Part shown: piece by piece, positions 285 to 5,830 of the stretch
How the letters are laid out: each line of letters starts with the position of its first letter
How positions within the stretch are numbered: position 1 is the first letter of the stretch
Virus record (IMG/VR): IMGVR_UViG_3300045988_031704
Length of the DNA: 5,830 bases
From: a virus
Reading direction: 5' to 3' (one strand)
Made by a program: the position numbers and the translations under genes
The notes under the pieces: generated by a model
What the model was told of the DNA's origin: nothing
What the model saw: only the letters and a program-made list of their open reading frames with translations
The model's database searches: none

Positions 285-489
285 TGATCTTGCTGTTTTG
301 TAATATATTCGTAACCTTTTTTTGCAACTCGGTTTTGCTCCTTTGTTTTGATGGCGCTTTAGCGCCTTGCCGTGCGTAGCGTATGCGGAGCTCGGCTAAT
401 CCTTTCCTTTTTAGCGCTGTGCGCGTTTTCAACACTTTCAACACTTTCAACAGGTTTTCCACAAAATGTTGCACAATACTTTTCGTCAT
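268..489 (-). CDS. Doubtful 73-aa ORF encoding a very basic protein (...KTRTALKRKGLAELRIRYARQGAKAPSKQRSKTELQKK...). It could be a J/ORF8-like DNA-binding protein. Its N-terminus is encoded by the iteron repeats (LKVLKVLK).
   Basis: ATG 489 has no convincing SD (GAAAG only). The first third of the ORF is the tandem 9-mer array, and the ORF ends inside the P1 promoter. Small Arg/Lys-rich DNA-packaging proteins are known in Microviridae. It may equally be a non-coding iteron region. Confidence 0.25.
   Translation of the reverse strand: MTKSIVQHFVENLLKVLKVLKTRTALKRKGLAELRIRYARQGAKAPSKQRSKTELQKKVTNILQNSKIIEKTY
353..366. repeat. 14-bp perfect palindrome GGCGCTTTAGCGCC. The same arms GGCGCT/AGCGCC recur at 640-645/664-669.
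   Basis: Direct reading. Confidence 0.6.
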
Positions 490-600
490 TTTGACGAACT
501 TTCAACATTTCAACAAGTTTTCAACAAAACTTTCAACATTCTTTTTTGCTTTTTATTTACGCTTTAACGTTAAATTTTAGTACTTTTCAACTTTTCCACA
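428..600. promoter_or_regulatory. Iteron-like array of about 10 copies of TTCAACA and variants at roughly 9-11 bp (one helical turn) spacing. It includes three tandem 9-mers TTCAACACT (428-454) and two TTTTCCACA elements (455-463, 592-600) that each match the relaxed DnaA-box consensus TTWTNCACA perfectly.
   Basis: Perfect TTCAACA at 428, 437, 446, 501, 509, 520 and 532. TTCCACA at 457 and 594, and TTCAAC at 586. All copies are in the same orientation, inside an AT-rich tract. Confidence 0.6.
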
Positions 601-605
601 TTGCC

Positions 606-620
606 TACTACTACTACTAC
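606..620. repeat. (TAC)5 trinucleotide microsatellite.
   Basis: tactactactactac, read directly. Confidence 0.8.
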
Positions 621-676
621 AACAAGTTATATATTATTTGGCGCTTGTGAGCTTGCGAACTATAGCGCCTAAGAGC

Positions 677-719
677 TGCGCGTGCGCGCGTGCGCGCTTC
701 GCGCGCGTGCGTACGCGCA
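677..719. repeat. GC-rich tract of about 43 nt, made of two runs of perfectly alternating purine/pyrimidine bases (677-697 and 700-719). The tract is Z-DNA prone and folds as an imperfect hairpin centred on gcgcgc-ttc-gcgcgc.
   Basis: tgcgcgtgcgcgcgtgcgcgc ttc gcgcgcgtgcgtacgcgca. The core 692-697/701-706 is a perfect 6-bp GC stem, extended by G-T/wobble-tolerant pairs. It is strikingly GC-rich against the AT-rich flanking sequence. Confidence 0.6.
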
Positions 720-738
720 GTAAAGATATATTTACTTG

Positions 739-756: not shown

Positions 757-779
757 TACATGGAGTCTTTAACGATAAT

Positions 780-811
780 AGCCCAGTACCTTACTTGATA
801 GGTACTGGGCT
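780..811 (-). terminator. Perfect 12-bp stem / 8-nt loop hairpin (agcccagtacct - tacttgat - aggtactgggct) 20 nt downstream of the rep stop. A candidate operon terminator, or a structural element of the replication origin.
   Basis: 780-791 is the exact reverse complement of 800-811. In mRNA sense the hairpin is followed by the moderately U-rich AUUAUCGUUAAAG. Confidence 0.55.
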
Positions 812-823
812 AGGTGACACCAC

Positions 824-5543: not shown

Positions 5544-5830
5544 TTACATCCCCTTTCTGTATTTTTTGGTGCGTGTGTCGATGTGTACCCACGTATTATA
5601 CACGATTATGCCGCATTCATCCGGAATTATTTTGTTCAGTTTGTTGGCGATTTCTTTTGCGGTCATGCCATTAACCCGGATATCTGCTGCCATTCCTCGC
5701 ATATGGTATGAGTACTTTGCACCGCCTACTGCTTTATTCCTTGTTGGTGTCCGGTATCCGCTGTTGATGATTACAGGCTTTCCAACATGGTTTCTGAGTA
5801 CGTCTAGGATAGATACCAGGTAACTATCTA
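5544..5830 (-). CDS. 3' portion of the same Peptidase_M15_3 gene. It carries the zinc-ligand motifs, and its stop TAA is at 5546..5544. Positions 5776-5830 duplicate 1-55.
   Basis: Minus-strand translation reads ...VIINSGYRTPTRNKAVGGAKYSYHMRGMAADIRVNGMTAKEIANKLNKIIPDECGIIVYNTWVHIDTRTKKYRKGM*. The SGYR...N..VGG...S.H..G.AADI ... VHID signature matches the H-x6-D ... H zinc site of the M15 (VanY-type) family. The full protein would be about 123-129 aa. Confidence 0.85.
   Translation of the reverse strand, partial: DSYLVSILDVLRNHVGKPVIINSGYRTPTRNKAVGGAKYSYHMRGMAADIRVNGMTAKEIANKLNKIIPDECGIIVYNTWVHIDTRTKKYRKGM
5776..5830. repeat. Second copy of the 55-nt terminal redundancy (circular junction).
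   Basis: Identical to 1-55. Confidence 0.9.

Follow-up and report, generated by a model that had tools for sequence, protein, structure and literature searches.

Here, we analyzed a viral sequence of 5,830 nucleotides (IMG/VR virus record IMGVR_UViG_3300045988_031704; this whole stretch is hereafter called the window) and identified a 214-bp non-coding cassette with sharp edges at positions 426-639. The window represents one circular gokushovirus genome of 5,775 nt, with an exact terminal repeat of 55 nt (positions 1-55 are identical to positions 5776-5830). The larger part of the cassette is an array of short direct repeats that resemble DnaA boxes; beyond the array lie DnaA-trios and a pure A/T tract, arranged in the grammar of a bacterial chromosome origin (oriC). 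The cassette is conserved among relatives with fixed internal spacing, and it is independent of orientation and position. Judged from its sequence, it is probably a self-contained module of chromosome-origin design that recruits host DnaA and unwinds DNA, acting on the double-stranded replicative form of the phage. Origins of plasmids and phages are well known to contain DnaA boxes, and chromosomes to use the box-plus-trio system. A full module of chromosomal type (boxes, trios and unwinding element), present as a conserved and invertible cassette in Microviridae, appears to be undescribed. No paper mentioning both gokushoviruses and DnaA was found in the literature searched, subscription literature being outside its coverage.

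DnaA-box-like repeats and their layout

An iteron-like TTCAACA array had been proposed for this region in an original prediction whose range ended at position 600. The array was borne out, with seven exact copies of TTCAACA at positions 428-538, all on the plus strand. The heptamer occurs eight times in the whole window compared with 1.18 expected, and its over-representation against shuffled sequence, which had been suggested as a check, was confirmed (0 of 200 shuffles reached eight copies). Two copies of TTCCACA (457-463 and 594-600) raise the number in the region to nine, and TTCAACT (586-592) and TTGCACA (469-475) bring the same-orientation total to 11. As 9-mers, these sites form three clusters (A, B and C; Table 1), with start-to-start spacings of 9, 9, 11 and 12 bp in cluster A, 8, 11 and 12 bp in cluster B and 8 bp in cluster C. 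Thus, the helical-turn spacing that had been suggested for the array holds inside each cluster but not between clusters, where the distances are 32 and 54 bp. Among the three units described as tandem TTCAACACT, two are indeed TTCAACACT, but the third is TTCAACAGG.

The two copies of TTTTCCACA (455-463 and 592-600) match the relaxed DnaA-box consensus TTWTNCACA exactly, as had been stated, but their number alone is insignificant: two matches were found compared with 0.79 expected, and 37 of 200 shuffles reached the same count. They were therefore rejected as stand-alone evidence. A different result was obtained with the Mollicutes-type consensus TTWTCMACA, which has four perfect matches in the window, every one of them within the array (0.33 expected), and 17 matches when up to one mismatch is allowed, 10 of them within the array (6.55 expected); neither count was reached in 200 shuffles.

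Relatives of the cassette were collected by a pattern scan of viral contigs and by GenBank searches. An alignment of 92 distinct cassette copies was examined, and 34 representatives were used for the site consensus. The consensus over all sites in these representatives is TTTTCAACA. It differs from TTATCCACA at positions 3 and 6, precisely the two at which the published Mollicutes DnaA-box consensus TT(T/A)TC(C/A)ACA (PMC3322544) is degenerate, and TTTTCAACA itself has served as a DnaA box for Lawsonia (PMC2671203). Moreover, homologous sites in relatives alternate between TTTTCAACA, TTTTCCACA, TTATCAACA and the perfect TTATCCACA; for example, the site at 518-526 is a perfect TTATCCACA in 5 of the 34 representatives. 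By sequence, the eleven boxes in three clusters fit the low-GC Firmicute/Mollicute type TT(T/A)TC(C/A)ACA.

The part of the cassette beyond the range of the original prediction (601-639) comprises a 4-bp spacer, (CTA)5, CAACAAG and the A/T tract. Read on the plus strand, positions 584-639 consist of TTTTCAACT/TTTTCCACA, TTGC, five CTA triplets, CAACAAG and TTATATATTATTT. The basal unwinding system (BUS) of the Bacillus subtilis oriC consists of DnaA-boxes #6/#7, DnaA-trios and an AT-rich unwinding element, as reported by Richardson in 2016/2019 and by Pelliciari in 2021 and 2023. We compared the cassette with this system element by element, using published definitions of the box, spacer, trios and A/T element and their tolerances (PMC8287927). 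The trio-proximal box, for which up to two mismatches to TTATCCACA are tolerated, is TTTTCCACA at 592-600, with one mismatch and a perfect fit to TTWTNCACA. The tandem box upstream, for which up to four are tolerated, is TTTTCAACT at 584-592, with three mismatches to TTATCCACA and one to TTWTCMACA. The overlap of TTTTCAACT and TTTTCCACA mirrors that of TTATCCACA/AAATCCACA, which are boxes #6/#7 of B. subtilis and also occur in the Bacillus origin used for comparison below. A spacer of 0-16 bp, typically a GC-containing one of 4 bp, is represented by TTGC at 601-604 (GGCC in Bacillus), and the requirement for at least three trios 3'-NAN-5' (GAT preferred), with the 5' end pointing away from the boxes, corresponds to five GAT trios on the minus strand. 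The A/T-rich element past the trios is represented by 627-639. As for location, a BUS lies in a chromosome origin beside dnaA/dnaN, and the cassette lies in a phage non-coding region between the Rep and M15 peptidase genes. By its sequence, the cassette is thus of the same design as the BUS, though not a member of it in the chromosomal sense.

The comparison origin (L261) is the region between dnaA and dnaN of a Bacillus, taken from metagenome contigs; both flanking genes were confirmed by Pfam. It reads TTTTTCACA ac TTATCCACA/AATCCACA ggcc CTACTATTACTTCTACTA tttttt aaaaatatatatatt. Its two proximal boxes share one base, with their starts 8 bp apart, and its last box starts 13 bp ahead of the first trio; both distances are shared with the phage cassette and are near-invariant in cassette copies. 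When the two sequences were placed in register, 28 of 39 positions were identical, compared with 22 of 39 in the next best register anywhere in the phage genome. One of 2000 window shuffles contained the strict pattern of box, spacer and (CTA)3, as did a single site in 766 kb of unrelated control DNA. The trio strand is arranged in the same way in L261 and in the published trio-complement strands of B. subtilis (CTACTATTACTTCTACTA; PMC10201434) and Clostridioides difficile (CTACTACTATTACTACTA and CACCTACTACTATTACTACTATGA; PMC7561715).

In summary of likeness, the cassette shares with the BUS the forward boxes, 4-bp spacer, same-strand CTA triplets and A/T tract, in the same order, on the same strands and with the same spacings. 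In addition, the plus strand of the trio tract carries repeated 5'-TnnT-3', the form of the DnaD recognition element, which likewise lies opposite the trios in the BUS. The differences are that the cassette resides in a 5.8-kb single-stranded-DNA phage with an HUH Rep instead of adjoining dnaA, that its boxes mostly have A at position 6 and all point one way, that CAACAAG follows the trios, and that the A/T tract is short (13 bp).

Table 1. Positions of the cassette components and of neighboring features in the window
Feature	Position	Strand	Description
Box cluster A	426-475	+	Five same-orientation DnaA-box-like 9-mers; left edge of the cassette at 426
Sites of cluster A	426-434, 435-443, 444-452, 455-463, 467-475	+	TTTTCAACA, CTTTCAACA, CTTTCAACA, TTTTCCACA, TGTTGCACA, respectively
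Palindrome TTCGTCA-ttt-TGACGAA	482-498		Between clusters A and B; overlaps inverted repeat I4
Box cluster B	499-538	+	499-507 CTTTCAACA, 507-515 ATTTCAACA, 518-526 TTTTCAACA, 530-538 CTTTCAACA
A/T-rich spacer	539-583		Palindrome TTTAACGTTAAA at 562-573; GC 0.22-0.28; sequence variable, length conserved
Box cluster C (trio-proximal pair)	584-600	+	TTTTCAACT (584-592) overlaps TTTTCCACA (592-600) by one base
4-bp spacer, last box to first trio	601-604		TTGC here; CCCC, CTCC or GCCT in relatives
Five DnaA-trios	605-619	-	(CTA)5 on the plus strand, i.e., 3'-GAT-5' five times on the minus (gene-sense) strand
CAACAAG	620-626	+	Near-invariant; between trios and A/T tract
Pure A/T tract TTATATATTATTT	627-639		Candidate DNA-unwinding element; 13 bp, 13/13 A/T; right edge of the cassette
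GC-rich palindrome (I1)	676-720		Conserved; 21-nt arms, 86% complementary; between the cassette and the Rep-side hairpin
Perfect 13-bp hairpin (I2)	779-812	-	Outside the cassette, directly after the Rep stop; gene-sense loop CTATCAAGTAA; candidate nick site of Rep (double-strand origin)
VP4 Rep	1850-831	-	
M15 peptidase	Start 158, across the window end to 5544	-	

Conservation, spread and orientation of the cassette

The same cassette was observed in many mammalian-gut microviruses, including some whose Rep and VP1 are only 37-58% and 40-54% identical to those of the window, respectively; 43 GenBank records of mammalian-gut gokushoviruses contain it. Across diverse phages, similarity starts abruptly at GTTTTCAACA (426) and stops after CAACAAG and the A/T tract (639). 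In these phages, the cassette is 59-96% identical at the nucleotide level, compared with 12-41% for the left flank among unrelated clades, and the flanks are unrelated between clades. The repeats are therefore kept in relatives, and the circumstances named in the original prediction as speaking against it (an unconserved array in a coding region) do not apply.

The distances between components are held constant. The two boxes at 584 and 592 lie 8 bp apart in all 92 copies, the distance from the box at 592 to the trio at 605 is 13 bp in 90 of them, and the trio tract is 15 nt long in all 92, with relatives keeping (CTA)3-NNN-CTA. The distance from 530 to 584 is 54 bp in 84 of 92 copies despite low per-column conservation of the spacer sequence, and that from 466 to 499 is 33 bp in 76 of 92; the 482-498 palindrome is replaced by different sequences in other clades, with the length of the spacer between clusters A and B conserved. 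Similarly, the 14 nt past CAACAAG are 89% A+T in 91 relatives, compared with 55.6% genome-wide, so that composition is kept and sequence is not. CAACAAG itself becomes CAACAAA in only one of the 34 representatives. Near-invariant spacing despite free spacer sequence is the signature of a nucleoprotein site that acts on duplex DNA; genes, promoter operators and strand-specific signals would leave a different pattern.

Of the 80 close relatives compared, 61 share the window's orientation of the cassette, six have the whole cassette inverted, and 13 have no match to the trio pattern. In the six inverted cases, both flanks and the hairpin beside Rep keep their orientation. Most of the 13 loci without a match end soon past Rep, and one of them (L071) has the box array and had been missed by the pattern; only one close relative (L014) truly lacks the cassette in the available sequence. 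The most distant clade has the cassette immediately upstream of Rep, not downstream, and there TTCAACA is read on the gene strand. The occurrence in both orientations, together with this relocation, fits a duplex-acting, self-contained element.

The relative without the cassette is an IMG/VR contig of 8,781 nt whose Rep is 93% identical to that of the window; it has the full downstream flank and an apparent reverse-strand coding sequence after the Rep-side hairpin, and may be a recombinant or a chimeric assembly. In addition, a shorter cassette without cluster A (query positions ~81-218, comprising cluster B, the spacer, cluster C and the trios) was observed in microviruses from pig, dog, mink, raccoon and rhesus (H68-H81). 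By its composition, this version hints at a minimal functional unit.

A short inverted repeat, TGCGCGT (420-426) and ACGCGCA (713-719), brackets the cassette. Since the inverted cassettes were flipped between the GC-rich flanks, recombination between these flanks is suggested as the cause of the inversion in the six relatives. No terminal inverted repeats were found at the ends of the cassette, and a transposable element was ruled out on this ground.

Proposed role of the cassette and alternative explanations

From this layout, we infer DnaA binding, unwinding and a role in the phage life cycle, which could proceed as follows. Host ATP-DnaA would fill the box clusters on the double-stranded replicative form, and the pair at 584-600 would steer the DnaA filament onto the trio (TAG) strand, which is the minus strand of the window. 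The adjacent A/T tract (627-639) would then melt, and host helicase loaders (DnaD/DnaB/DnaI-DnaC in Bacillota) would enter at the melted tract. The most likely use of such a module would be host-driven, Rep-independent opening and replication of the replicative form, i.e., a second origin of theta type; alternatively, it is possible that melted DNA is supplied to the rolling-circle machinery. A tentative further proposal, to which we give clearly less weight than to the module itself, is that the cassette is a working DnaA-dependent theta-type origin. The host's chromosome-initiation machinery would then copy the replicative form of an otherwise rolling-circle, lytic-type microvirus without the phage Rep, and might also maintain it in a carrier state or as a plasmid-like episome. 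Fragments of oriC of 217-247 bp, containing one or two DnaA boxes and A/T-rich blocks, suffice for plasmid replication in mycoplasmas (PMC4351888), which sets a precedent for sufficiency. The box consensus of the minimal oriC plasmids of Mollicutes (Mycoplasma and Spiroplasma citri) is identical to the phage repeat and its variants and their size is comparable, the difference being that those plasmids carry the host's own origin fragments tested in that host.

The iteron-type origins of plasmids and phages (P1 oriR, pSC101, F and RK2, and origins inside an initiator gene) are also similar to the cassette, in that they belong to mobile replicons and have tandem DnaA boxes near an A/T block. An example was found in an unrelated dsDNA phage contig (L188), which has the same box type (TGTGGAAAA, TGTTGAAAA, TGTTGAAAG and TGTTGAAAC) within an HTH_36 initiator-like gene beside an SSB gene; its block at 2210-2520 contains four TGTGGAAAA/TGTTGAAA boxes, five GAGGAAnAAAAnTTCC iterons, a 60-bp A/T block and two more boxes, and by sequence is origin-like, with the context of a classical origin. 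However, such origins require an element-encoded initiator that binds the iterons, with DnaA as a helper, whereas the microvirus cassette has neither a second repeat family nor such an initiator gene and contains the full trio element instead.

Ideas on gokushovirus replication have mostly been extrapolated from phiX174, a phage that does without DnaA, and gokushovirus origins are undefined. Several observations weigh against a DnaA-based module. Microvirus replication as established for phiX174 and G4 is not known to need DnaA. The DnaA model gives no account of the near-invariant CAACAAG, which is not a DnaA-trio because its middle base is wrong. Eight of the eleven boxes have A where the Escherichia coli relaxed consensus TTWTNCACA requires C, and are weak sites under E. 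coli rules; moreover, all eleven have the same orientation, and the Bacillus origin L261 has boxes in both orientations upstream. The Spiroplasma phage SpV4 contains neither a box cluster nor a trio, so that the cassette is to be regarded as an accessory of one mammalian-gut gokushovirus group. Finally, the exact trio-plus-CAACAAG pattern was found in no bacterial chromosome, origin or prophage among 185,579 species representatives, and hence no host origin was matched. The scan of these genomes with CTACTACTACNNCTACAACAAG yielded 26 matches, 25 of which have no box array and are mostly tyrosine- or threonine-rich coding repeats; the remaining one is a 5.7-kb microvirus contig binned with 'Bacteroides sp. 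CAG:545'. A search of a plasmid database gave no match to the cassette either.

The main alternative that still involves DnaA is binding without initiation, where the cassette would be a sink for ATP-DnaA similar to datA, or would tie phage expression to the host DnaA level. The same box evidence applies here, the boxes are many per genome and the replicative forms many per cell, and a promoter-like site (284-255, minus strand) is located on the other side of the cassette from Rep. Like datA-type titration loci, it is a dense cluster of DnaA boxes outside oriC. However, a sink or an operator needs boxes only, and titration requires neither trios nor an unwinding element, whereas conservation within the cassette is strictest at the trios, the A/T tract and the exact 13-bp distance from box to trio. 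We thus consider this role unlikely. A promoter operator, which the original prediction had listed among its options, loses further ground in that the position and orientation of the cassette vary relative to promoters and no promoter-like site was found within 426-639.

The original prediction had also left open whether the array binds Rep or host DnaA. If Rep were the binding protein, the repeats would be iterons of VP4 Rep, and the cassette a rolling-circle double-strand origin nicked in or near CAACAAG/TTATATA, comparable to the binding repeats of pMV158 RepB or to CRESS-DNA virus iterons. Iterons usually take the form of direct repeats spaced by 8-12 bp; as at the pMV158 RepB bind locus and in CRESS-DNA viruses, the repeats here are short, spaced by about one helical turn and non-coding, in a replicon whose Rep is of the HUH type. 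A self-contained origin of this kind would also tolerate inversion, and by our own comparison CAACAAG and the A/T tract loosely resemble the phiX174 origin CAACTTGATATTAATAAC (~11 of 18 positions). On the other hand, iterons normally change with Rep, whereas the TTTCAACA unit remains unchanged over Rep identities of 37-100%, and the sequence past CAACAAG is conserved in composition only. The cassette, unlike the pMV158 and CRESS-DNA arrangements, has no fixed geometry to the candidate nick hairpin: it is inverted in 6 of the 67 close relatives carrying it, and, depending on the clade, it lies ~20 nt to more than 140 nt away from the hairpin. Rep iterons would also give no account of why the cassette matches DnaA boxes, trios and the geometry of a Bacillus oriC.

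A better candidate for the nick site is the separate hairpin beside Rep (Table 1). All 26 diverse cassette-bearing genomes examined have one perfect hairpin of at least 8 bp directly beside Rep on the gene-sense strand, located after the Rep stop in most clades and before the Rep start in the most distant one. Its loop is conserved as (C)TATCAAG(T/A)A or GATAGACAAG(G/T)A, while the stem occurs in six versions; HUH nick sites usually combine a constant loop with stems that co-vary. From these sequence features, it is more likely that the 779-812 hairpin, rather than the cassette, holds the rolling-circle nick site, which leaves the array free for another role. Taken together, Rep binding appears improbable, with the repeat kept at 37% Rep identity and the cassette inverted or relocated relative to both Rep and the hairpin. 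Of the options in the original prediction, the one that gained is a host-DnaA, origin-like platform, since the whole array fits the published box consensus and is followed by trios and an A/T tract in Bacillus oriC geometry.

It is rather less probable still that the array is the target of a different duplex-DNA-binding protein (for example, a host regulator, a nucleoid protein or a partition-type adaptor) and resembles DnaA sites by coincidence. Clustered direct repeats do serve many DNA-binding systems, and the palindrome TTCGTCA-n3-TGACGAA at 482-498 fits TGNCGAA, the form of a Spo0A box. However, this palindrome is replaced in other clades, no candidate partner is encoded by the phage according to Pfam and PHROGs, and a coincidence would have to produce at once the trios, the A/T tract, both spacings, a DnaA-box consensus and sites that alternate with perfect TTATCCACA.

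A complementary-strand (single-strand) origin, in which folded packaged DNA would recruit a primosome, RNA polymerase or DnaA, as in the phiX174 primosome site, G4, plasmid origins or the R6K A-site hairpin, seems very improbable. Microviruses must prime their complementary strand, and the gene-sense strand does carry the DnaA-binding TAG trio strand. Nevertheless, single-strand origins work in one orientation only, and the occurrence of the cassette in both largely refutes this possibility. Furthermore, neither strand folds notably better than shuffles (z of -1.43 and -1.38), and the boxes are all direct repeats that have no complementary partners and would remain single-stranded; only one imperfect 12-bp pairing involves a box (I4). 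A structured RNA was also rejected, as no family match was obtained with Rfam 15, the sole match with E < 1 lying inside the Rep gene at 20.5 bits compared with a gathering score of 51.

Finally, the possibility that the repeats encode a small repeat-containing protein, from the existing ORF 268-489 on the minus strand (LKVLKVLK) or ORF 383-580 on the plus strand, where some GenBank records mark a 'hypothetical protein', is refuted for practical purposes, since the equivalent ORF varies from 17 to 140 aa in relatives with frameshifts after about residue 30, shows no codon periodicity, loses its conservation over the C-terminal third of ORF 268-489, has its start inverted with the cassette in six relatives and has no Pfam or PHROGs matches. 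The region is non-coding. Among 52 close relatives (Rep at least 89% identical), it is at least 90% conserved per column from 640 down to 335.

Two separate candidate elements have now been defined, namely the DnaA module at 426-639 and the conserved-loop hairpin at 779-812 beside Rep. If the module works as proposed, the 'chromosomal' box-plus-trio design would be portable and would have been taken up by a single-stranded-DNA virus. This would explain how very abundant gut phages could replicate or persist in a host-coupled manner. The type of DnaA box could then serve as a sequence clue to hosts, and the module as a compact natural substrate for studies of DnaA-driven unwinding and a possible vector basis for gut Bacillota. 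If the theta-type origin also proves true, Microviridae would have a second, host-coupled mode of replication, and the cassette would be a natural, portable minimal origin of ~214 bp for gut Bacillota.

Gene context and flanking elements

All genes of the window are on the minus strand and, according to Pfam and PHROGs, comprise an M15 peptidase, several small ORFs, ORF5, VP3 scaffold, VP1 capsid, VP2 pilot and VP4 Rep; the circular genome was opened within the peptidase gene. Rep stops at 831 and the peptidase starts at 158; the gap of ~670 nt that separates them contains the cassette. In GenBank, the closest relatives are gokushoviruses from human and pig gut that have no annotation. Strong Shine-Dalgarno sequences are present, e.g., AAGGAGGAGG ahead of VP1, and their strength fits a Bacillota-type host rather than Bacteroidota; the phage-encoded M15 peptidase in turn argues for a host with a cell wall. 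As a pointer to the host, the CAG:545 binning is weak and conflicts with the strong Shine-Dalgarno sites.

Two promoter-like sites were found on the minus strand, both outside the cassette, at 284-255 (TTGAAA-18-TATAAT, conserved) and 167-139. In three relatives (L019, L033 and L065), a small gene (MKHNYELRELN...) is located between the site at 284-255 and the peptidase; the window does not contain it. For the peptidase itself, a start at 158 (MIKCYIMDTD, with GAGGA upstream) is likelier than one at 140.

Around the Rep-side hairpin, TTACTTGATAG occurs twice, as an unpaired copy at 732-742 and as the hairpin loop at 791-801, and the direct repeat AGACTGA is located at 738-744 and 747-753 (CAGTCTAT twice on the gene-sense strand). 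On the antisense strand, ACTTGATA at 732-742 and 791-801 resembles the nick region CAACTTGATA of phiX174; this is probably coincidental, as it is the gene-sense loop TATCAAGTA that is conserved across clades. The CAAGT common to the hairpin loop and CAACAAGT was likewise regarded as a coincidence, since no co-variation was seen when clades were compared by eye. A dif/Xer site at 620-645, suggested by TATATATTAT, which is shared with the B. subtilis dif, was rejected because the XerD-arm positions mismatch and the stretch is variable among relatives.

On the right of the cassette, positions 640-669 form an optional hairpin (GGCGCT ... AGCGCC), present in only ~44% of close relatives. On the left, positions 335-427 are a highly conserved non-coding block whose orientation is fixed relative to the genes, with a hairpin GGCGC-TTTA-GCGCC at 353-366. 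Indels are tolerated in this block (L033, for example, has an inserted hairpin of 30 nt), and a related start of the form GGCGC-loop-GCGCC is found in more distant clades.

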